A DNA stretch of 64,000 nt from an uncultured virus (IMG/VR IMGVR_UViG_3300012277_000001) (taxonomy: Duplodnaviria; Heunggongvirae; Uroviricota; Caudoviricetes). The stretch spans positions 124,001 to 188,000 of IMG/VR virus record IMGVR_UViG_3300012277_000001. One strand, given 5' to 3'. Positions 1-17,189 of the stretch are shown piece after piece (within the stretch, counting starts at the first letter, position 1; each line of letters begins with the position of its first letter). The translations under genes and the position numbers were made by a program. The notes below the pieces were generated by a model. That model made no database searches and was not told the origin of the DNA. It was given only the letters and a program-made list of their open reading frames with translations.

Positions 1-485
1 CCTTTGCCCATCCACTCTACGGTGAATTGCTCCGCCAACCATTCGGTTTCGTTTTTCGCTGCATATTCGCTCGGATTTCCAAGCTTTTTGCGCAGGTCAC
101 GAAGGGTCGATTTGTAGTGGCCCCACGCATCGTCGTCGTGTCCGCATTCGTGAGCGATTGTCGCGTGTATGCAATGTCCGTATTCGTGGACGATCAACGC
201 GTCAAAGGCTTCGTGTGGGCCGTCGTGCACCACAAACCCCGGAGGATTAGCCTTGCCACATTCGCGCTGTGCATCGGCCACCGTGCCACGTGTAAACGCG
301 GTTGTCAGACGAATCTTTCTGGTTTCCCGGTCGAATTCGGAGGTCAGCCGGTCGGTGTATTCCACACCTTTCAAAAACTTCGCAGCTTTCGGAAAAATTA
401 AACCCAAAGATGCCAGCTTCTTCTTAACGTGCTTGGCAACTTCCGGCGATACGTCAGTTGAGGCCATCGCCAGCATCATTTCCAT
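1..485 (-). CDS. Zincin-like metallopeptidase with MEM-type leader (3' end outside the window; not in ORF track)
   Basis: Manual translation from ATG 485 (TGATG overlap with upstream stop): MEMMLAMASTDVSPE...LIVHEYGHCIHATIAHECGH...PSEYAAKNETEWLAEQF. HExxH plus downstream SEYA..N..E.LAE as in lethal-factor/MuF-associated zincins. Confidence 0.75.
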   Translation of the reverse strand, partial: MEMMLAMASTDVSPEVAKHVKKKLASLGLIFPKAAKFLKGVEYTDRLTSEFDRETRKIRLTTAFTRGTVADAQRECGKANPPGFVVHDGPHEAFDALIVHEYGHCIHATIAHECGHDDDAWGHYKSTLRDLRKKLGNPSEYAAKNETEWLAEQFTVEWMGK

Positions 486-874
486 CAGCTGAAATCCTTC
501 GCAGGCTTGTAGACCATGAGCAAACTGCCCCATTCGTCTTTGAACAATTTCTTGGTTTCTTCCAACGAGGCCTTGAGATTCAACGCCGGGCGGAAACCGT
601 TTTTGTAGAACACATGCAGCGAAGCGACACTGGATACCTGCGCCCCGATATCGCTTTTGTATTTCCGCACAATTCCCTTCAATAGGAAATCGCCGTGGCC
701 TTGGCCTCGATGTTGTTCGTCGATCACGTAATCGGTAACGCTGTGTTTGCACGGCGAGAATTCCCCGCCAGTGCGCACGCAAATGTAACCAAACTCGGAA
801 CGGAATTCCGTACCAAAATGCTCGCCCCGATCCGTGATTTTAATCGAGGCGGCCAGCGCCAATTGCATTTCCAT
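485..874 (-). CDS. GNAT-family acetyltransferase with MEM-type leader
   Basis: VIDEQHRGQGHG (acetyl-CoA motif A) and FYKNGF (motif B); starts MEMQLALAA. Confidence 0.75.
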   Translation of the reverse strand: MEMQLALAASIKITDRGEHFGTEFRSEFGYICVRTGGEFSPCKHSVTDYVIDEQHRGQGHGDFLLKGIVRKYKSDIGAQVSSVASLHVFYKNGFRPALNLKASLEETKKLFKDEWGSLLMVYKPAKDFS

Positions 875-879
875 TTCTT

Positions 880-1797
880 TTACTCCAAACCGTGCAGTTC
901 GCGCTCTTCGCTAGTCATCCAACGCTTGCGCACATAATCCAAGAATCCTTTAGTGTCAACACGCAATTTACGTTTAACACGTTTGAGTTTCTCAAGGAAT
1001 TGCAAATCAGAACCCTCTCGGGCCGCATCTAACAGCCGGTTGAAGTCGCGCACAGCTTGGCTACCAACGTCCCACGTGTTTATCAGGTGTTTAATTTGGC
1101 GAGCAACACGGTCCCGATTTTTCTGCTCTTCCTTTGTGCGGGCGCCTTTCAGGTACTGTGTGTAGTGTGCTTCGCTGCCCTTGAAGACGATTTGTGACGC
1201 CACGTACCAAGCTTCCAACTCACCCGTACTGTAGGGCTGGAAAACCTTCTGCCCGAACTTACGTTTCTTTTTGTCCGAGACTTCCAGCTTGATTTTCTTG
1301 CGTTTATCGAGGTTCATAAACGCATTTATATCGGCGTACTGGAACAGTTCTATACCGTTCCTTTTTGCAAGCAATGCCAGCGTAAGTGAATCGTTGGATT
1401 TGAATTTACCACTCTCTTTCATAAAGTGGATTTCTTTCACGTACCGGATGCACGGGATGTACATTTTGTTTGAGAACAGTCGATCTTCTTTTTCGTCATT
1501 GTCCACATACTTTTGATCGGCCCAGTAATCAACGGCTTTGATCTTATAGTTCGCGTTCATCTTCTGCCCGTCGAGCACAAAGATAACGTGAGTACCACCA
1601 GCCTCATTCCTGAAGTAATCGGAATGCTTGGAGCGGGCAAGGCTCAGAAAATATTGAGCATCGCCGAATCCTGATTCAACGCCTTCGTTGGTGGCTGCCA
1701 ACTTGAACTTATCGTTCTTCAGCGCAGTAATTGCGTGCTCCATCAGGATCAAGTGATAGAGCACACTGGAACCGGCCAGCGCCAGCATCATTTCCAT
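880..1797 (-). CDS. Hypothetical protein with MEM-type leader; possible ADP-ribosyltransferase-fold N-terminal domain
   Basis: Starts MEMMLALAG; LYH ... FLSLARS ... EKEDR pattern resembles ART strand-1 His, S-x-x-x-S and E-x-E elements. Confidence 0.5.
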   Translation of the reverse strand: MEMMLALAGSSVLYHLILMEHAITALKNDKFKLAATNEGVESGFGDAQYFLSLARSKHSDYFRNEAGGTHVIFVLDGQKMNANYKIKAVDYWADQKYVDNDEKEDRLFSNKMYIPCIRYVKEIHFMKESGKFKSNDSLTLALLAKRNGIELFQYADINAFMNLDKRKKIKLEVSDKKKRKFGQKVFQPYSTGELEAWYVASQIVFKGSEAHYTQYLKGARTKEEQKNRDRVARQIKHLINTWDVGSQAVRDFNRLLDAAREGSDLQFLEKLKRVKRKLRVDTKGFLDYVRKRWMTSEERELHGLE

Positions 1798-2103
1798 TTA
1801 ACGTTTCCTTGCGGCGCGGGCCGTAGCCATGGCGGCGCGTTTGAATTGCGCCAGTTTACGTTGAGCCATCTGCAATTGACGACCAATGACCGCCAATTGG
1901 GAATCGCTCAAATGTTCTTGGTTATACTGCTTCTTCAGCCGTTCAATTTCTGCACGGAGTTGTGCAACGTGCGAACGGTAGGCATCGGCGCCTGAAACTT
2001 CCGGAGCGCTAGCACGGGCACCGGCAAAGATCGAACCGGGGTGTTGCTTCAGGTATTTCTTTTTGGCTTTGTTGGCTTTTGAATGAAACCAGTGTTTGGC
2101 CAT
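1798..2103 (-). CDS. Small basic hypothetical protein with coiled coil
   Basis: ORF abuts both neighbours; WF..KKYLKQHPGS N-terminus followed by heptad-like region. Confidence 0.6.
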   Translation of the reverse strand: MAKHWFHSKANKAKKKYLKQHPGSIFAGARASAPEVSGADAYRSHVAQLRAEIERLKKQYNQEHLSDSQLAVIGRQLQMAQRKLAQFKRAAMATARAARKR

Positions 2104-2345
2104 TACTTTCTCCAGTGGCGCACTGGCCCCTGCGGACCTTGCGGACCTTGCGGGCCTACAGGCCCTTTCACCATTTTATTTGGATGCCGCATAACTTCGC
2201 GGGACGCTGCTGTCACGTCACGCCAAAAATCGGAATGGAAATGCATAGAAGATTTCTGTTCACGATCAATGGCGCGAATCCCATAAACGACCAGTGCCAG
2301 AAGCGGCAACTGCATCAGCAGGGCAAACCACTCGGCATTACCCAC
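2103..2345 (-). CDS. Small membrane protein with short collagen-like tail
   Basis: Hydrophobic WFALLMQLPLLALVVYGI; GPVGPQGPQGPQGPV near C-terminus. Confidence 0.65.
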   Translation of the reverse strand: MGNAEWFALLMQLPLLALVVYGIRAIDREQKSSMHFHSDFWRDVTAASREVMRHPNKMVKGPVGPQGPQGPQGPVRHWRK

Positions 2346-2763
2346 GGCCCAGTTCCTTACGAAGAACGGGAAGATCCGACCAGATTTCTTGGTAGCGTTT
2401 TGCGAAACTACGCACCACGGAAGGCACCGGTTCTGGACGTGCGCTGGCGACCGCTACTTCGGTGCCCGACAAGTTGTTTTCCGCCTGCAAATCTGCTTTG
2501 GTGCAGACAAAGAAGTGGTCAACCTGTGCAACAGGAATCTTTTCGTAATATTCACGATCCGCGTCCGGGTTGGCCACGTCGAGCGCCAAATCGTAGGTCA
2601 CGGTTTCAGGCTTCACGTTGACAGCCAGCACCTTTGCACGGATCGCACATTCATGCAGGGCACCGAGATTAAGGCGACGGATCGCGGGGTGGAACCAGAC
2701 TTCGGTGCCGCACGCGTAGACCGGATATTGAGTAACAGAGGCGATTGCGATTTCAGTTTTCAT
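2338..2763 (-). CDS. Hypothetical protein with EIAIAS/EVAVAS motifs
   Basis: Start reassigned to ATG 2763 (TAATG overlap): MKTEIAIAS...; second motif EVAVAS near C-terminus. Confidence 0.65.
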   Translation of the reverse strand: MKTEIAIASVTQYPVYACGTEVWFHPAIRRLNLGALHECAIRAKVLAVNVKPETVTYDLALDVANPDADREYYEKIPVAQVDHFFVCTKADLQAENNLSGTEVAVASARPEPVPSVVRSFAKRYQEIWSDLPVLRKELGRG

Positions 2764-2939
2764 TAGGCGGCACACACCATATTGTTTGCGATTTCGGGAT
2801 GCTTTTCAGCGAATTCTTTCCAGCTTTGCAGCCACTTTTCCGTGCGTTGGCGGTTAGCTTCGTAGCGGGCTTCACGTTCTTCCGCCGTTTCGTTCTCGTA
2901 GATTTTTTGCAGGTCAGACAGACGAATAGGTTTGATCAC
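2763..2939 (-). CDS. Small hypothetical protein
   Basis: GTG at 2939 overlaps the upstream stop (GTGA); its stop overlaps the next ATG. Confidence 0.5.
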   Translation of the reverse strand: MIKPIRLSDLQKIYENETAEEREARYEANRQRTEKWLQSWKEFAEKHPEIANNMVCAA

Positions 2940-3145
2940 TGATGCTTTCCTTTCTGTTTGCGTCGTTCTTGGCGCATATTGTGTTGGACGTACCACGGCA
3001 TTTTTTGCTTCGCTTCCAAGTTACCAGCTGGCCCATCGGGACCACGGTCGCCGCCGCGCCCACCATTCCAATCGTCACCCGGCAAACCGGGGCGTGCGTA
3101 AAAGCCAGTATTTTGTTGCGGAAATTCGTCTGCCATGCCCATCAT
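2936..3145 (-). CDS. Small Gly/Pro-rich (collagen-like) hypothetical protein
   Basis: ATG 3145 preceded by AGGGA; GLPGDD..GGRGGDRGPDGPAG. Confidence 0.45.
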   Translation of the reverse strand: MMGMADEFPQQNTGFYARPGLPGDDWNGGRGGDRGPDGPAGNLEAKQKMPWYVQHNMRQERRKQKGKHQ

Positions 3146-3155
3146 GTTTTCCCTA

Positions 3156-3872
3156 TCAGTATTTCGCTTGGAGTACCAGATCCCAATGGGTTGCGGCGTT
3201 GGTGTTGGTATTGGCCAACGAGATTGCAAAGGTATAGAAACCTGCGACTGGAATATCGAATTCGGCAGACTGCAAACGACCAAATGCTTTTGAGCCAATA
3301 CCGCCGGAAATGGTCACACTTGCAGTGTCAGTGGATTCGGCGGCATAAATCATTTGCGTTCCGTTGCCACCTGTAGTCGCGCTAGGTTTGTTGACCTTGC
3401 GCAGCCCGATTGTGAAATCAGCATTAACCGTGCCGTTGTTGTTCTGCGAATATGTGGCAGAAATTCGCAGTTTAGCCCCGACAGGAAAGTCAGCAGGGTC
3501 CAGATAAATCAGGTTTAGCGGAACGGTGGTCAGTGCCGAAGACATATCCGCAACGGTGAGATTGGGGATAGCCCAGTATTTACCAAGGCCCTGTGCACCA
3601 ACGATGGTGGATATGCGGAGAATGGGACGAAACACCGCAGTTGATCCGCCACCATTGATCAGAGATTTAACCTGATCCAGCGTGGCGATATTCTTCCAAG
3701 CGGCGCCGGTGTTGTGGTACAGACCGTCGGGGAAGTTTGTCTGATCCGCGTGGCCGTGCAACGAAAACAATTCGCCGATATTCCCGTTGCCGGGGAACGT
3801 AGAACCATCAGGCAACGTAAGGTTTACGATCTTGCCGCCTTCGACAATTACTAGGTCGCCATTTACTTTCAT
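3156..3872 (-). CDS. Putative virion/tail-fibre-associated beta-rich protein
   Basis: Gly/Thr/Asn-rich; TFP...GELF motif typical of fibre repeats; beta-sandwich-like C-terminus. Confidence 0.5.
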   Translation of the reverse strand: MKVNGDLVIVEGGKIVNLTLPDGSTFPGNGNIGELFSLHGHADQTNFPDGLYHNTGAAWKNIATLDQVKSLINGGGSTAVFRPILRISTIVGAQGLGKYWAIPNLTVADMSSALTTVPLNLIYLDPADFPVGAKLRISATYSQNNNGTVNADFTIGLRKVNKPSATTGGNGTQMIYAAESTDTASVTISGGIGSKAFGRLQSAEFDIPVAGFYTFAISLANTNTNAATHWDLVLQAKY

Positions 3873-3944
3873 ACATTTCTACTCTTTTTGATGTGTGTTG
3901 GGCTTCCTCTCCCGTTCGGCGCCTTGAGGGTAGACTGTCTTTTA

Positions 3945-4448
3945 TTATTCGTCGATGTTGTCGGAGGTGCCAAACTGGCCGTTATTGCCAATGGCGCTTT
4001 TGATTTGTTTCGGGCTGAAGACAATCCACTGATCGCCTACACCGCCAACATCAAAATGGTTTTTCAAATGCACGCCGTCACAGCCATGGCGCAGGGCTTC
4101 ATTGATTACTACGTCGCGGCCTTCTTTGCTGCCCTCGAAATCGTGCGTGTAGAGCTTCTGAATCGACAGGTAGCAGGGCATCACGTGGCCCACTACAGGC
4201 GCAGGCCAGTTTTCATCGTAGCCGGAATAAGCAGACGCCATTTTCGGATCAGTGGCGAAGAAAATGCCAGACTCATTGTGGGATCTGTTCAGACCAGTCA
4301 TGAACGCACGGAAATTCGTGTTGGGCGACCCGTGGTAAACGCGCAGTGGATTACCAGAATGGTCTACGCACTTGGAAGCACGAAACCACTTTTTGAATTC
4401 TGGCGTCAGCTGCTGCTTGGCCGTGGCCAGCGAAAGGATCATTTCCAT
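3945..4448 (-). CDS. ADP-ribosyltransferase of the polyvalent-protein (ART-PolyVal) type with MEM-type leader
   Basis: FKKWF..SKCVD.SGNPLRVYHGS, GIFFATD...ASAY, VMPCYL, DGV, IVFSPKQIKSAIGNNGQF match the family pattern; starts MEMILSLATA. Confidence 0.8.
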   Translation of the reverse strand: MEMILSLATAKQQLTPEFKKWFRASKCVDHSGNPLRVYHGSPNTNFRAFMTGLNRSHNESGIFFATDPKMASAYSGYDENWPAPVVGHVMPCYLSIQKLYTHDFEGSKEGRDVVINEALRHGCDGVHLKNHFDVGGVGDQWIVFSPKQIKSAIGNNGQFGTSDNIDE

Positions 4449-6136
4449 TATTCGGTACTCTTAGTCGCCAGATCAATGGCTTTCTGGATTTTGGAATTCG
4501 GGCGCGTGTTGGTCTTTTCGTAAACCGGAATGAATACCGACGGGTCGATATAGTTGGCAATAGCCGTGGTGGCTGTTACCTTCTCGCCTGCCAAATGCCC
4601 CAGTTCCTTACCGATCTTCAAGCATTGATCTTCAATCCATTTATTGACCACTACGTCTTTGGCACGTGCGCCATGCGGGCACTTGTCCATCAGCGCTTTG
4701 GCCATCGCAGTACCTCGAAGTTTTCGAAACTTGTGAACCGTGAAGCCTTCGGGGAACCCAAGTTCGCGAATGTAGCCATTCACCTGCGAGTTCGACAGAG
4801 GTTTACCACGGAAAGTGAACACGTATTCCGCTGGCTTTTTCTCATGGATGAATTCGGAGATTGCGCCGTACAGCATTTCGGTACGCTGTTCGTCGAACTT
4901 GATCACGTGCTTTTGTGCCCCGGCCTTTTTGCCGAGGTACTTGATAATCACCCGCTGATCATTGAAATTCAGGTGTTTGCGCAGCAGCGTAGAAATGCCG
5001 TACGTGGTTTCACCGGCAGTCAACGCACGCGTGGAACCGATACGTGCCGAGGTCTGATAAATCACTTCCAAAACGGCAGCAGCCGTACCGCGCAGGGTGC
5101 CCGGACCTTTCGCCAAATCAGGCAACCATTTTTTGATGTACTTCGCCATATCCGGCAGCATGTTTTGCACGATGCCGAAAGACTCCACGCGGCCTTCGGT
5201 GCGGGCTGCGATGGTATAGACGTTGGTCGTCGATTGGGCAAAGGGCGCTTTGTACTGGCAGTAATAAATCGTAGAACCCGGCGTATAGTTCTTGTTCATC
5301 GAACCGGCACCAACCGGCTTATTCATCAGCTGTAGGCCGTCGCTGGTGTAGTAATTCCCTTTGTCGTCCATTTGACCGGTGAACCAATCCGGAATATCGT
5401 GCTGCACACTTCCCATCTGTTCGCGAATATCGTCCACGTCCAATGTGTGCTGCCCACTGGCACGAACGATGTTGGCCACGGCCTTATCGGCAATGGCTTT
5501 GCGCTGGCGGCGCATGTCCAAATATTCTTGGTGCTCGGCGAGGTTGGCCCCCAGTTCCTTTGCCTTTTCTCGCCACTTGGTCAACACGGTTTCAGGCATG
5601 ACATTGCCCTTCACTTTGCCGTATTTCTTCACGTGGTCTTCAAGGCGTTGGTACAGTGCGGATTGAGAGGCCGAAACCGTGTGTTCGTCTTCATGCATAA
5701 ACATTTTGGAAATGTGGGAGTCCTTGAAATACCCCACGTTCTGCATCAGCCGCTTGGTCGCAGCTTCAGACCCATTACGGGCCAGACGGATATCGGTCAG
5801 AAAAGCCAGCTGCTGCTTCGACAGATTCTTATCTTTATCGAACGCCTTTTTCTTTTTCTTCAGGGCGTCGAAACAGCCGTTCAGAATGTGATGGTATTTA
5901 TCGGCGCTCACGTCTTCGCCGTCTGCCAGCATGGTCAGCGTTTTGGTAAACGTGCGCTTGATTCCATATTGCTCAAGGAACGGCTGCGCCTGTACATTCC
6001 ATTTCTTCAGCTTCGGCGTGAACGTTGTGCCGTAGTCGAATTCGCTCGCCTTGTAGATCGCAAGCAGCAATTTCAGAAAGGCGTCAGCGGAACCGGGCGG
6101 GGCTGGCGCAGCAGCGGCGATTGACATTTCCATCAT
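4448..6136 (-). CDS. Type IB DNA topoisomerase-like protein with MEM-type leader
   Basis: RIG, YLGKK, HKFRK, LGH and catalytic NYIDP in the order of the Topo IB R-K-R-H-Y pentad; starts (M)MEMSIAAAA. Confidence 0.75.
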   Translation of the reverse strand: MMEMSIAAAAPAPPGSADAFLKLLLAIYKASEFDYGTTFTPKLKKWNVQAQPFLEQYGIKRTFTKTLTMLADGEDVSADKYHHILNGCFDALKKKKKAFDKDKNLSKQQLAFLTDIRLARNGSEAATKRLMQNVGYFKDSHISKMFMHEDEHTVSASQSALYQRLEDHVKKYGKVKGNVMPETVLTKWREKAKELGANLAEHQEYLDMRRQRKAIADKAVANIVRASGQHTLDVDDIREQMGSVQHDIPDWFTGQMDDKGNYYTSDGLQLMNKPVGAGSMNKNYTPGSTIYYCQYKAPFAQSTTNVYTIAARTEGRVESFGIVQNMLPDMAKYIKKWLPDLAKGPGTLRGTAAAVLEVIYQTSARIGSTRALTAGETTYGISTLLRKHLNFNDQRVIIKYLGKKAGAQKHVIKFDEQRTEMLYGAISEFIHEKKPAEYVFTFRGKPLSNSQVNGYIRELGFPEGFTVHKFRKLRGTAMAKALMDKCPHGARAKDVVVNKWIEDQCLKIGKELGHLAGEKVTATTAIANYIDPSVFIPVYEKTNTRPNSKIQKAIDLATKSTE

Positions 6137-6555
6137 TGGCCCTTGATGTAATCCATACGGTTAAATTTGTTGGCGTAGCGGCGGCTTGGAATGTCGTCGG
6201 TAGGCACACGAATGCCCACGTAATAGACCGTAGAATCCAATTTGCTTTTTTCGGACTCAACCACACGTCCCTTGGAATCGACGCACATCAGCAACAACTC
6301 CAAAGCGTCTTTGTCGTTGTGACGGTAAACACGGTAGCCGTAGTAAAGTTGGTATTTGTGGCGGTCGGCGTATTTGATAATGCCGTCGTCGTTACGGGGC
6401 AAATCATTTACAAAGTTGCCGCGCTTGATCACAGGCAAATGCAGCAGGCGCTGGCCGAGGTCGCGAATGTCCGGATAGTTCCGTGCAAGACGCACCATCA
6501 GCCCACCCGGCAAAAACTTCTGCTGATCAGCAGCCAGAGCGAGCATCATTTCCAT
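6133..6555 (-). CDS. Hypothetical protein with MEM-type leader
   Basis: Starts MEMMLALAA; stop overlaps the next start. Confidence 0.7.
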   Translation of the reverse strand: MEMMLALAADQQKFLPGGLMVRLARNYPDIRDLGQRLLHLPVIKRGNFVNDLPRNDDGIIKYADRHKYQLYYGYRVYRHNDKDALELLLMCVDSKGRVVESEKSKLDSTVYYVGIRVPTDDIPSRRYANKFNRMDYIKGQ

Positions 6556-6556
6556 T

Positions 6557-6895
6557 TTATTTTCCTGTAAGACGTTCGAAGTCTTCGATCATTTCGGCTT
6601 GCACGTCGGCAGGGCGTGCCCATAGTTCGACCTGTCCTTTTTGGGACACGCTGCCTTTGGAGACTGCAAACAGCATAAAGACCGGGCCACGTGCCGTTTG
6701 GAAAAGGGCTTTGAAATTGATTGGCCCTGCCCCCGATTTTTTCCACATGGTAATCGGGGTTTTCTTGCCTTGGAAGCTTATGGTAGCCCCATATTCTTTG
6801 TTGAGGATGAATTTGCCATCCACCACGGAATCCTGCCAAGCAGATTTAACGGAATCCGCCAAACTGCTGCTAGAAATCGCAAGCATCATTTCCAT
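6557..6895 (-). CDS. Hypothetical protein with MEM-type leader
   Basis: Starts MEMMLAISS; TAATG overlap with tmk stop. Confidence 0.7.
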   Translation of the reverse strand: MEMMLAISSSSLADSVKSAWQDSVVDGKFILNKEYGATISFQGKKTPITMWKKSGAGPINFKALFQTARGPVFMLFAVSKGSVSQKGQVELWARPADVQAEMIEDFERLTGK

Positions 6896-7527
6896 TATTT
6901 ACACCATTCATCCACCAGCGCCAGAATTTGACGCCGGACTTCTTCAAGGGGTTGCTGGGCGTCGATCACCACCCACGATTCGTCGATCATGTCGTGGTAG
7001 GCTTCGCGCACTTCAGCGAAATAGGACAGGGGTTTCTTCTCGAATTCATCGAGTTCAATCCCTTTCTGCACACGCGATTCGTGCATACGCCGGAAACTAA
7101 CTTCAGGCGGCAGGTCAAGCAAGATCGTCAAATCCGGCTTGATCAAATGGCCGTAATCATCAGCCATTTGGTGAATTTGTTCGGTAGCCTCACAGGTACG
7201 CGTTTGGTACGCAAGGGCCGACCAGTAATAGCGCTCGCTGAAAACGTGTGTGCCGCTTTCCAGCGCCGGACGAATCACGGCTTCGGTGTGCTGAATGCGT
7301 GCGGCATACGACAGAAAAGGCTGGCACAGAGCAGGCACTTTCCCTTCATGGTCAAGCATCAGACGGCGCAGCGTTTCAGCAAATGGAGTGCCGCCCGGCT
7401 CACGCGTGAAAATCATGTCAATGTCATTATTTTCCGCATGCATACCAACGTAGATCGAAGCTGTTCCTTTGCCAGCGGCTTCGATAGACTCCAAGCAAAT
7501 GAATTTCCCGCGTTTGGTTTTGATCAC
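6895..7527 (-). CDS. tmk: Thymidylate kinase
   Basis: P-loop ESIEAAGKGT, TREPGGT, SERY..S.LAYQ, KPDLTILLD. Confidence 0.93.
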   Translation of the reverse strand: MIKTKRGKFICLESIEAAGKGTASIYVGMHAENNDIDMIFTREPGGTPFAETLRRLMLDHEGKVPALCQPFLSYAARIQHTEAVIRPALESGTHVFSERYYWSALAYQTRTCEATEQIHQMADDYGHLIKPDLTILLDLPPEVSFRRMHESRVQKGIELDEFEKKPLSYFAEVREAYHDMIDESWVVIDAQQPLEEVRRQILALVDEWCK

Positions 7528-8096
7528 GTCAAGAATACCCGCTGTGTACGTTTGATTGTGTGTCGTGCATCACCAGCCAACCACGCCAGTTTGCGATACA
7601 TGCGATGTTTGGCAAAGATGGAAACTTGCCGATACTTCGCTTTTTGGCTACAGGAAATGCGACCGGTCGTCTCGCTCAAAACCAGAATGCCAACACCTGC
7701 CGCTTTCAGTTCTTCGCGGATTTCCGGATAGCAGCGAGATTTGGTTATGGATGGCGCAAAAAGGAAATAAAGCCGATTGGTATGTGGCAGATAATCGCGC
7801 CATTTCTTATCAGCACGGTAGTCTGCTAGGCAACTCTTAATCTCAATTCCGTAAAAATTTCCGGGATAGTCAATCACCAATGCATCAAGCCTGCTACGAC
7901 CCCAAGGCACGACCCCGACTTCTTTGTGCACAGAACAGGTTTTCTTCGCGTAGTAATAAGTGAGCGCCATGTACAGTGCAGCTGTGATATCGGTGCGTGA
8001 CATTTTCACGGAGCCTTCAGCGGCTTCCGTTCGTTTGTCATGTGCTTTCTTGGCGCGTGCTTGCTTAGTGCGCGTGCCCTTTCGTGTGTACGCCAT
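7524..8096 (-). CDS. MmcB-like PD-(D/E)XK nuclease
   Basis: RLDAL...IEIKSCLADYRADKKWRDYL...RLYF matches the MmcB/DUF1052 pattern. Confidence 0.75.
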   Translation of the reverse strand: MAYTRKGTRTKQARAKKAHDKRTEAAEGSVKMSRTDITAALYMALTYYYAKKTCSVHKEVGVVPWGRSRLDALVIDYPGNFYGIEIKSCLADYRADKKWRDYLPHTNRLYFLFAPSITKSRCYPEIREELKAAGVGILVLSETTGRISCSQKAKYRQVSIFAKHRMYRKLAWLAGDARHTIKRTQRVFLT

Positions 8097-8107
8097 CCAT
8101 TCCCCGC

Positions 8108-9436
8108 TTAGGCAATAAGCCTCATAATTTTTGCGTATTCCGCCAACAGACCTTTGTGGTCATATTTTTTAATCAAGGCGAACATTGCGTCGGTGTACTG
8201 CTGGTGCGTCGTGCGGTCCGCATAGGACAGACGCATATCGTTCAAAACGTTTACCACGTCGGCGTCATCAATCGAATTACGGGCCATGCGACCAATAAGC
8301 GATTTGAACTTCGCATCGGTTTGTGTGGCCAGCATTTTCGACGGAAACTTCATCCACTTAGCACGCAACACCATACGGTCATCGGTGTAGCTACGCATCG
8401 AGCGGTAGAACTGATCGACCGGCAACGAATAGAGGTCGGGAATCTCTTTGTAATCCGGCAATTCAACGTCAATCGACGGACGCAGGTAACAGGTGTATAG
8501 CTCTTCTGCACCTTGGAGATTCACGGCGCCTTTGAATTTCTTCTTCAGCGTGGAATTTGTGAATGCTTTGGAACTGGTCAGGTGTGAACCGCCCATGGTG
8601 ACGGCGCGGTCTTTGGTCCGGATCAGTTTGATTTGGTATTCCGAATGCGGATACATTTCTTTTAGCGCTACGGCCAGTCGATCCGCGTCGGATTCTTCCA
8701 GAGGCTTTTCGGTGTACCACGCGTTCCACGAACTGACGGTGCCGCGCTCAACTTCAAACGCGACAACCGCATAAAACTCTTCGGTAGATTTGCGTTGGAA
8801 CTCTTCGTGCGTCGCAGCCTTGATGATGTGGAAACCGTAGGCGTTCAACCGACGCATTTCCTCTTCGAAGAGCGGCCCGTGATCGTCGTGCAATAGCTCG
8901 GCGGCTTTGTTCGGGTCGATCTTGTGAAGCTTCATTGCACGCTTCATGTGCATCAAGTGAATCTGTTCGTGCAGGATGGTATTCGAGAATAGCACCCGGT
9001 CGATCATTGCCGATTCGTGCACGTGCATGAAATAAACGGGTTTTTTGCCCGCGAATTTCATCTGCGCCAGACCCCAAATCTTGGGGTTACGACTCTTCAC
9101 GAATTTTACGACTGGACACTCGCCGTTGAAATAGGTGTTGTTGTAATAGTCGTAAAGCAGCGGCACCATTTCGAACTTGGGTTTGAACAGCATGTAAGGT
9201 GGGTTCTCCGGGTCCACCTCAACTGACAAAAGTTCTTCGCTCATTTGATGCAGCGCGTTACCTTCTTTGATCGTCAGTTTGAAGATGATTTCCGGGTTGT
9301 CCTCATGCTGCACAACGTAGCGTTCGCCGTGGCGGTACATGGTGAAACGGTCGCCCTGCACCATCAGCAAATCGTATTCGTCGTTGGCCGATCCGTACGT
9401 GATTTCACGCTCGGCCATATAGCGATAGTTGGCCAT
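8108..9436 (-). CDS. SprT-like zinc metalloprotease with extra N- and C-terminal domains
   Basis: YYNNTYF, TILHEQIH (HExxH), HGPLF. Confidence 0.75.
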   Translation of the reverse strand: MANYRYMAEREITYGSANDEYDLLMVQGDRFTMYRHGERYVVQHEDNPEIIFKLTIKEGNALHQMSEELLSVEVDPENPPYMLFKPKFEMVPLLYDYYNNTYFNGECPVVKFVKSRNPKIWGLAQMKFAGKKPVYFMHVHESAMIDRVLFSNTILHEQIHLMHMKRAMKLHKIDPNKAAELLHDDHGPLFEEEMRRLNAYGFHIIKAATHEEFQRKSTEEFYAVVAFEVERGTVSSWNAWYTEKPLEESDADRLAVALKEMYPHSEYQIKLIRTKDRAVTMGGSHLTSSKAFTNSTLKKKFKGAVNLQGAEELYTCYLRPSIDVELPDYKEIPDLYSLPVDQFYRSMRSYTDDRMVLRAKWMKFPSKMLATQTDAKFKSLIGRMARNSIDDADVVNVLNDMRLSYADRTTHQQYTDAMFALIKKYDHKGLLAEYAKIMRLIA

Positions 9437-15800: not shown

Positions 15801-17189
15801 CTACATGAAATCAGTAGCGGGACGTTTACCCATCGCAATTACATGGGCACGCAATGTTTTGTAAGTGGTTTTGCCACGGGCCGTCAGCGGGTATTCGTCA
15901 CCGAGTGCCACAACGGACTTTAAAGCGGATTTGAATGCACGCTGATCAGCGCGAATCAAAGTGCTGTGTTGCAGAGACGCCAGAAGCTTGAATAAATCGG
16001 CCTCGGAATCGACGCGTTGGCGACGGAGGATTTCGAACGCAGAACCCGGTTTATTGGACTCGGCAGAATTCTGCACGGAATCCATCCAAGTGTGGAATGC
16101 ACCTTTCGGAATATTGAGCGTGCGTTTAGCGTGGCCCGGTTTTTCAGGTGCCTTTTTAGGTTCTGGTTTAGGCGCGGCAGTTGGTGCATCAGCCGGGACC
16201 AAAATAGTACCCTTCAACGTCAAGTGAGCTTTGCCCTTCCCGTCGTCCACTTCAGCTTTACCAGTTGTGGCCAGTTCGCCCAAAATACGACCTAGTTCGG
16301 GATGCTTGGCCCCCAACCACTCGAAACCTACACCAGACCACGTTTTAACCGTGGATTTACCGGGATATGCATCGTGGGTAATGGAGATTTCTGCACGGCC
16401 ATTCACTTTCATCCCGTCGGGGATTTCGAAAGTGGTTGCTTTTGACTTCTTAGCTGGTTTGGTTGGCGTTTTCGGAGCCGGTGTCGCCTCAAGTTCTGCG
16501 AGGGTCTTACCTTCTTTTGGCTTCGGTGCCACAGGCTCTTTACGTGGCCCGGTAGGAGCAACATCGAAGGGAGGCAGGTCGAAATTGCGACCGATCTGAT
16601 ATTGCGGTTTGACGTATTTGATCAGGTAGTTGAAGTAGCGACCACGCGATTCAGCGGCAACCATGTCGGTGTATTCTTTCTTCGACACGTTTTCGTATGC
16701 CCAGCTGGCGCCGTTGTGGAAGGCTACATAAAGGATTTTGCGCTTCGAATCGTAGATTGCGAAATGCAGGTTCGAACTGTTCATGTCCTCGATGCGCAGC
16801 CAACCTTTGGGCAATTCAACGCCGCCGGTTTTGTCGAGGTCGCCCACACCCGCCTTCACAGGAATTTTCCGGATCTTACCGGACCACCCTTTCGAGTGCT
16901 GCATCAGGCGCGTCAGTTCCTGTTCGTTCAGTTTGAAAACGATATCAGGGCTATGCTTGTGGATAACGAAAATACCGTGGGCGCGTTTCTTCACGCCGTA
17001 CACGTTACCTTCGTGAATTTCCAGTTCGTAATCTTCGTTGTGGCGTGGTTCCGTGTAGTTCAGGACGGGTTGCCCTTCAGCATACTGAAACCATTTGTAC
17101 TGCGTTGGATCAATTTTCGACATTGTGGTGCCCTCGATCATGTCTGCGAGTTTAGGCCCATTTTTGTCAACAGCTTTGAGGGTAGGCAC
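15801..17189 (-). CDS. KTSC-domain-containing protein
   Basis: SSNLHFAIYD..RKILYVAFHNG..WAYENV....Y..MVAAESRGRYFN..IK is a KTSC domain; Pro/Lys linkers. Confidence 0.75.
   Translation of the reverse strand: MPTLKAVDKNGPKLADMIEGTTMSKIDPTQYKWFQYAEGQPVLNYTEPRHNEDYELEIHEGNVYGVKKRAHGIFVIHKHSPDIVFKLNEQELTRLMQHSKGWSGKIRKIPVKAGVGDLDKTGGVELPKGWLRIEDMNSSNLHFAIYDSKRKILYVAFHNGASWAYENVSKKEYTDMVAAESRGRYFNYLIKYVKPQYQIGRNFDLPPFDVAPTGPRKEPVAPKPKEGKTLAELEATPAPKTPTKPAKKSKATTFEIPDGMKVNGRAEISITHDAYPGKSTVKTWSGVGFEWLGAKHPELGRILGELATTGKAEVDDGKGKAHLTLKGTILVPADAPTAAPKPEPKKAPEKPGHAKRTLNIPKGAFHTWMDSVQNSAESNKPGSAFEILRRQRVDSEADLFKLLASLQHSTLIRADQRAFKSALKSVVALGDEYPLTARGKTTYKTLRAHVIAMGKRPATDFM

Follow-up and report, generated by a model that had tools for sequence, protein, structure and literature searches.

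In phage T4, non-homologous head proteins carry an N-terminal peptide of about 10 residues, i.e. the capsid-targeting sequence (CTS) of IPII and IPIII and the propeptides of IPI, Alt and gp24 that are removed by gp21 (accessible parts of PMC9958956 and PMC5694885). How proteins with such T4-type tags localise to the core is still called mysterious in the accessible text of PMC9958956. Here we describe leaders of a comparable kind in a window of 64,000 nucleotides, positions 124001-188000 of a 307,943-base virus record that represents a jumbo phage of ~308 kb. All seven leaders in the window, each at the start of a minus-strand gene, share ATGGAAATG, and we propose that they are best regarded as functional counterparts of the T4 CTS that use an Ala/Ser code, very probably marking a prohead-protease site in head-associated precursors.

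Other jumbo phages also process their head proteins in this manner. In phiKZ, 201phi2-1 and SPN3US the prohead protease trims many internal head (ejection) proteins at a single short motif that occurs several times in the propeptides, and, like the T4 enzyme, the proteases of these phages cleave after Glu (S-x-E, A-x-E; PMC5694885, accessible part); their propeptides are mostly longer than 100 residues, whereas the leader described here comprises 8. Polyvalent proteins (Iyer et al. 2017, PMC5512222) resemble our locus in their domain kit of ART-PolyVal, GNAT and zincin, their late-gene context and their proposed delivery with the DNA. ART, GNAT, zincin and Nudix domains are regarded as head-packaged early effectors, a packaging that the accessible parts of PMC5512222 and PMC9503650 argue from genome context. 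Polyvalent proteins are, however, defined by the fusion of disparate domains, whereas here ART-PolyVal, GNAT and zincin (129-175 amino acids, aa) are encoded by separate, separately tagged genes. Thus, as the cargo proteins are unfused, they are not polyvalent proteins.

Judged by the identity of its portal protein, the phage is related to Pseudomonas phage HRDY3 (94%), Lu11 (83%) and PaBG (53%), and to NCTB, fHe-Yen9-02, Y3 and the Dickeya JA phages (40-45%). These relatives are called the Lupandier group in the accessible part of PMC7412058, and going by them the host is presumably Pseudomonas. Searches of the open literature listed no description of the leader or of cleavage sites for this phage group, and the leader is absent from the accessible material of PMC7824862 and PMC5646251. 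The tagged genes of the window, together with a probable eighth one, are as follows.

1..485, minus strand: zincin-type metallopeptidase with HEYGH, tagged; 175 aa, reaching 42 bases past the window start; leader MEMMLAMAS, codons 1-8 at 462-485.
485..874, minus strand: GNAT acetyltransferase, tagged; 129 aa; leader MEMQLALAA at 851-874; Pfam Acetyltransf_1 E 5e-4, at the cut-off.
880..1797, minus strand: ADP-ribosyltransferase-fold protein, tagged; 305 aa, DarT/Tpt1-like N-domain and helical C-domain; leader MEMMLALAG at 1774-1797.
2338..2763, minus strand: probable eighth tagged gene; 141 aa; start MKTEIAIAS, matching the leader pattern but below 10 bits in the profile.
3945..4448, minus strand: ART-PolyVal ADP-ribosyltransferase, tagged; 167 aa; leader MEMILSLAT at 4425-4448; PF18760 E 3.5e-21.
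4448..6136, minus strand: topoisomerase IB-like protein (Topo IB), tagged; 561/562 aa; leader MEMSIAAAA at 6110-6133, second ATG at 6136; annotated as such in HRDY3 and Lu11.
6133..6555, minus strand: tagged protein without function assignment; 140 aa; leader MEMMLALAA at 6532-6555.
6557..6895, minus strand: tagged protein without function assignment; 112 aa; leader MEMMLAISS at 6872-6895.

The seven starts and leader peptides are exactly those that a sequence-only reading of the window had given, the 485 gene running off the window end, and the bodies are as unrelated as it had stated, showing no mutual similarity past residue 10 (best BLASTP E 0.47). Its cargo labels (zincin, GNAT, ART-like, ART-PolyVal, Topo IB and two unknowns) also hold, at varying strength: the zincin has a weak ATLF-family Pfam match below the cut-off, GNAT lies at the cut-off, and the 6133 protein shows weak PDB sequence matches to three solved Topo IB (E 0.005-0.008). 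For the 1797 protein, 'ART-like' is borne out by the predicted model (pLDDT 87.7), for which Foldseek lists DarT as best match (E 4.4e-4), followed by Tpt1/KptA; in its homologues S52, R55, E102, E104 and R106 are invariant and H15 is nearly so.

What is conserved in the leader is a hydrophobic-A/S core, M-x-Φ-x-[LI]-[AS]-Φ-[AS]-small. A profile for this genome, built solely from leaders of Lu11, Y3 and Yen9-02, is matched at the threshold of 10 bits or more by 10 of 435 called genes (null mean 0.42, maximum 3), including six of the seven window leaders; the 6133 leader scores 8.5. The sequence-only reading had suggested such a scan for related phages as well, and there leave-one-genome-out profiles yield 10/461 genes in HRDY3, 10/388 in Lu11, 5/331 in Y3, 5/317 in Yen9-02 and 3/316 in NCTB. 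The leaders are of two types. All 24 A-type leaders have L/I at position 5, and Ala occupies position 6 in 22 of them and position 8 in 23; all 15 S-type leaders have Ser at position 6, and 14 have it at position 8.

The leader is kept in orthologues while its prefix changes. Tagged orthologues of the GNAT protein are present in HRDY3 and fHe-Yen9-02, the Topo IB orthologues in HRDY3, Lu11 and PaBG have leader-like starts, and a search with the zincin returned 15 proteins, the query among them, of which 13 show the leader pattern. The 6555 protein has orthologues in HRDY3, Lu11, PaBG and NCTB, and homologues of the 2763 gene in relatives occur with and without leader. The prefixes read MKIQLAVA in Lu11, MKIQIAIA or MQIQLALA in IMG/VR relatives and M[KE]I[FL]ISLS in Y3 and Yen9-02. 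Hence 'MEM', which had been taken as the shared signal, had to be rejected as such: it starts 13 of 435 called genes, four of which lack a clean leader, and orthologues swap the prefix. MEM is a prefix of this lineage only.

The tagged set extends to at least five genes outside the window and thus to at least 12 in all. The cluster continues past the window's left edge with tagged genes at genome 118775, 119200, 122020 and 123958, and a further one, encoding 120 aa, lies at genome 247478 between the genes of the protease and of a scaffold-like protein; weaker candidates are window 2763 and genome 239687.

The latter neighbourhood, at genome 245.9-251.8 kb, constitutes the head module; a placement at window 37-48 kb was rejected. 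Besides the protease gene, the tagged 120-aa gene and the major capsid gene, it contains genes for an acidic protein of 655 aa (19% D+E) and for a homologue of gp81, a virion protein of PaBG. In PHROGs the protease hits 'head maturation protease' with E 6e-94, and H148 and S202 are invariant in 43 sequences. Its predicted model (pLDDT 75.9) has T4 gp21 as best match (Foldseek E 7e-3), with Z 10.9 and rmsd 3.2 over 149 aligned residues against 5JBL, so that a gp21-fold protease is encoded here as in T4. The next fold matches after gp21 include herpesvirus assemblins (VZV Z 5.8, CMV Z 5.1, a range that the tool grades as inconclusive). Assemblins cut after Ala and before Ser; they differ in cutting their own scaffold precursor and in having no N-terminal cargo tag.

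The 655-aa protein is probably the scaffold, going by its position and acidity. A profile of leader positions 5-9 only finds 23 sites in it, as compared to 3.7+-2.0 in shuffles, and its site density exceeds that of all 152 called proteins of at least 200 aa (proteins of the scaffold-capsid module were extracted separately and stand outside the ranking denominators). Its N-terminal part contains two repeated units with conserved Cys motifs, CxxGC and CPxC (genome C1:247903-249870), which suggests zinc binding. Across phages the A-type profile fits the scaffolds of this phage (z 9.8), HRDY3 (4.6), Lu11 (6.8), PaBG (4.9) and NCTB (3.6), but not those of Y3 (0.4), Yen9-02 (1.1) and PhiXhv-15 (1.4); the HRDY3 and Lu11 scaffolds are partial, with 328 and 417 aa. 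Conversely, the S-type profile fits PaBG (z 3.2), Y3 (2.3) and Yen9-02 (2.5), but not this phage (-0.5), HRDY3, Lu11 and NCTB (0.2 each) or PhiXhv-15. Across the phages, with the exception of NCTB, the leaders thus co-vary with the scaffolds in being of A-x-A or S-x-S type.

The capsid protein shows an aligned site at residues 67-72 in six of eight phages, and the alignment of the mature phage G capsid protein begins at residue 82. A cut between QIATA and S is predicted to remove 18-19% of the mass, and ~20% of the PaBG capsid protein is lost on maturation, as given in the accessible part of PMC7412058.

The same cargo domains also occur with other leaders. Among the best 150 of the 1147 homologue clusters of the 1797 protein, the domain is N-terminal in 117; 21 of these have an A/S leader, 20 of them with A/S seven residues before the conserved His. 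Of the other 96, 62 have Glu eight residues before this His, mostly with L/I two places earlier, and Φ-x-E-small occurs within residues 4-20 in 71 of the 150 homologues, compared to 46 of 415 proteins of this phage. Similarly, an A-type leader is found in five of eight ART-PolyVal homologues, the close ones, and N-termini containing Leu-x-Glu in the three distant ones. The near-identical register of the A/S and Glu leaders supports a cut after residue 8. Moreover, 14 long 1797 homologues were scanned, and the domain is fused to ART-PolyVal in two (below cut-off), to GNAT in one and to a weak metallopeptidase-family match in one, recalling the fusions of polyvalent proteins and fitting the earlier picture of a polyvalent protein split into individual units.

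Based on these findings we propose that the leader probably carries late-made enzymes into the prohead core, that the gp21-fold protease removes it at the Ala/Ser site and that the enzymes are then ejected. M-x-Φ-x-[LI]-[AS]-Φ-[AS] would be a capsid-targeting propeptide with which tagged proteins, late in infection, co-assemble with the prohead scaffold core, and the protease would cleave after Ala/Ser at position 8. Acting on the common site, Φ-[AS]-x-[AS] followed by a small residue, the same enzyme would shred the scaffold-like protein and take ~72 residues off the major capsid protein, a cut whose size agrees with the measurement in PaBG. After trimming, the enzymes would remain inside the head and most likely be delivered to the next host along with the DNA. 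There, as T4 and the polyvalent-protein literature suggest, Topo IB, the two ADP-ribosyltransferases, GNAT and zincin may act in the first minutes. That the leader suffices for targeting appears reasonably likely. Ejection and a host-modifying role, which follow from analogy, are somewhat favoured.

The likeness to T4 thus concerns the short N-terminal peptide on non-homologous proteins, the match, here by motif, of the leader end to sites in scaffold and capsid protein, the protease and the presence of ADP-ribosyltransferase cargo (cf. Alt, as described in the accessible literature). In contrast to T4, the leader is apolar and the predicted cut lies after Ala/Ser instead of Glu. As positions 5-9 contain no Glu in any of the 24 A-type or 15 S-type leaders, these are not T4 CTS in the strict sense. 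The lineage, too, is an unrelated jumbo one, in which the capsid protein is phage-G-like, the tagged genes number at least 12 and turn over rapidly, and targeting is a predicted function of the leader. The principle would already be that of T4, and the Ala/Ser version of the tag appears to be new. Taken together, the tag is real and well supported by sequence, and the core of the earlier proposal, an address tag trimmed by the prohead protease, is supported by the scaffold and capsid sites, the gp21-fold protease, the conservation in orthologues, the chance-level sharing of synonymous codons and the Glu leaders or fusions of homologous domains; the signal resides in the hydrophobic-A/S core, not in MEM. 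Of the three findings that the sequence-only reading had named as refuting it, two were looked for, and neither was obtained.

An apolar N-terminus ending in A-x-A might also direct proteins elsewhere. Signal peptidase I cuts after A-x-A, and N-termini that are short and apolar could interact with a variety of partners; the destination might be the host membrane, a viral factory, or the degradation or chaperone machinery. Sec signal peptide features (positive n-region, long hydrophobic h-region) are, however, found in none of the seven leaders, in all of which residues 1-6 have a net charge of -1 and apolar runs span only 3-7 residues. Moreover, Topo IB and like cargoes need the cytoplasm, and the S-x-S and Glu variants follow phage lineage and scaffold. 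We thus consider another destination very unlikely.

Weak support from virions comes from PaBG, whose virion proteome comprises 14 Coomassie bands in the accessible part of the source. Two of these 14, gp83 and the gp202 helicase, have a relaxed N-terminal site, as against 5 among the remaining 317 genes; p is 0.03, and the pattern was selected after the data had been inspected. The start of gp83 is MLIKINLLEAVAA, and its monoisotopic mass match, 35127.3, is exact. The gp202 helicase has 221 kDa, and its N-terminus shows, by eye, S-type sites in Y3, Yen9-02 and NCTB. PaBG gp82, the scaffold-like orthologue, is not among the 14 bands, which weakly fits a degraded scaffold.

As all the sequence evidence bears on the protease site and none on ejection, the leader could instead belong to head morphogenesis factors that work in the prohead or at the assembly site and are never ejected, serving them as a propeptide removed by the protease or as a docking strand. 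One tagged gene indeed lies inside the head-assembly module, and in T4, too, core proteins are cleaved that are never delivered to the host (PMC9958956, accessible part). Nevertheless, the cargo set is of enzymatic nature and is exchanged rapidly, three of the seven window cargoes having no homologue in seven related genomes, and ART, GNAT, zincin and Nudix domains belong to the effectors mentioned above. Leaders that merely serve head assembly are therefore an unlikely explanation, and the delivery of tagged enzymes remains our preferred reading.

Several observations speak against this reading. The leaders used for training were chosen by hand among the hits of a pattern search. In PaBG the strict profile is matched by 1 of 331 genes, i.e. 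at null level, and the relaxed pattern by 7 of 331, equal to the null maximum of 7; the window-cargo orthologues gp84 (Topo IB) and gp86 are not among the 14 Coomassie bands. For this phage, HRDY3 and Lu11, neither a virion proteome nor a cleavage map was found in the accessible literature. PhiXhv-15 has a protease of the same family yet tags 0 of 315 genes, so that the protease does not imply the tag. NCTB breaks the co-variation, combining S-type leaders with an A-leaning scaffold (z 3.6, as compared to 0.2 for the S-type), the S-type scaffold signal is modest in Y3 and Yen9-02 (z 2.3-2.5), and a hand-made S pattern failed on Yen9-02. The PHROGs label of the 655-aa protein is 'ATPase', although no ATPase family match was found for it. 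For the Glu-leader homologues, 'T4-like' derives from the motif and not from assigned source phages.

Two further points of this kind concern the DNA around the starts. An overlap with the upstream stop (TAATG/TGATG) is seen at seven of 12 tagged starts, compared to 51 of the 424 remaining genes. Residues 2-4, moreover, resemble each other more closely between unrelated cargoes within a genome (0.53) than across seven orthologue pairs with Lu11 (0.10). Together with direct-repeat families of 33-40 bases over the starts (60-73% identity), this could indicate translational coupling or a recombination junction spread by gene conversion, with the peptide as a by-product. Where a residue is shared between leaders, however, the codon is shared in 114 of 250 pairs in this genome (96 expected) and in 121 of 341 in Lu11 (118 expected), the pairs being non-independent, and in codons 5-9 the third positions do not deviate from chance. 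Codon sharing at chance means that the constraint acts on the peptide, as the sequence-only reading had concluded from the varying Leu codons. In addition, GAA makes up 250 of 279 Glu codons near starts regardless, Lu11, Y3 and IMG/VR relatives have the peptide pattern on different DNA, and a nucleotide element leaves the scaffold and capsid sites unexplained. We thus regard it as highly improbable as the cause of the leader, although gene conversion may help to spread the prefix. The concerted drift of residues 2-4 could reflect either a co-evolving receptor or gene conversion.

Tag and cargo are exchanged readily. In relatives, slots of window cargoes hold other tagged genes, and homologues have acquired or lost the tag: SprT is untagged here but tagged in PaBG, and Nudix paralogues of both kinds exist. 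We tentatively suggest an open cargo-loading code, in which mobile effector domains shared by distant phages would take whichever leader of 8-10 residues suits the resident prohead protease, i.e. Ala-type here, Ser-type in Y3-like phages and Glu-type elsewhere, while residues 2-4 would drift in concert in each genome as a receptor-matched address. The lineage might so inject a mix-and-match set, including Topo IB and a DarT-fold ADP-ribosyltransferase that possibly acts on nucleic acids at entry.

If the proposed role of the leader is true, a sequence rule would read out the internal, probably injected, proteins of the Lu11/PaBG/Y3/HRDY3 lineage, whose genes are mostly 'hypothetical', and would predict an Ala/Ser-specific prohead protease, whereas characterised gp21-type enzymes cleave after Glu. 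Virion-delivered Topo IB and DarT-fold enzymes would be candidate early counter-defence factors. Given a further code of different chemistry in phages that can be cultured, the question of core localisation would become a comparative one, and the leader would offer a short tag by which proteins could be loaded into large capsids.

Pfam, PHROGs and NCBIfam gave no match for the 1797 and 6895 proteins or for the 642-, 913-, 141-, 73- and 120-aa tagged proteins outside the window, and NCBIfam gave a name to none of 12 proteins. An Atlas search gave no family for the 642-aa protein and only leads under 0.9 for the 1797 protein. The 6895 protein, whose gene start overlaps the stop of an untagged dTMP kinase gene, has no homologue among seven related phage genomes. 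Four untagged genes are interspersed in the cluster (1798-2103, 2763-2939, 2936-3142 and 3156-3872). The last of these encodes 238 aa without family match, has its own ribosome-binding context and is missing from the matching HRDY3 stretch. Scans of window 1-9000 for promoters (5 vs 6.8) and terminators (12 vs 13.5) stayed at shuffle level.

Among the tagged genes left of the window, those for 913 and 642 aa (genome C1:119279-123958) are paralogues with a common N-terminal region of 250 aa and divergent tails; Lu11 has three copies. A Nudix-like gene at C1:61584, the PaBG homologue of which is annotated as Nudix, has an eroded leader starting MEMQVELHV, and its orthologues in HRDY3, Lu11, Y3 and Yen9-02 look tagged; an untagged Nudix-like paralogue lies at C1:36582.

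A second recurring N-terminal module, KMPT-N (PF20294), is found on three mutually unrelated proteins, a SprT-like peptidase, a KTSC protein and a 430-aa protein (window 8108-9436 and 15801-17189, genome C1:239687-240979). The 430-aa protein carries both a short leader and KMPT-N, as does, by homology, PaBG SprT, and KMPT-N is possibly another localisation module. Two proteins have homologues among the PaBG virion bands: a helicase of 2022 aa, near whose N-terminus lie an Ala-rich site and an acidic stretch (genome C1:214497), and a Lys/Ala-rich histone-like protein (C1:205531). Finally, at window ~37.9-45.2 kb (genome C1:161866-169219) several extremely acidic proteins are encoded beside Lys/Ala-rich basic ones, and one of the acidic proteins contains a run of ~80 residues that is nearly pure Glu.

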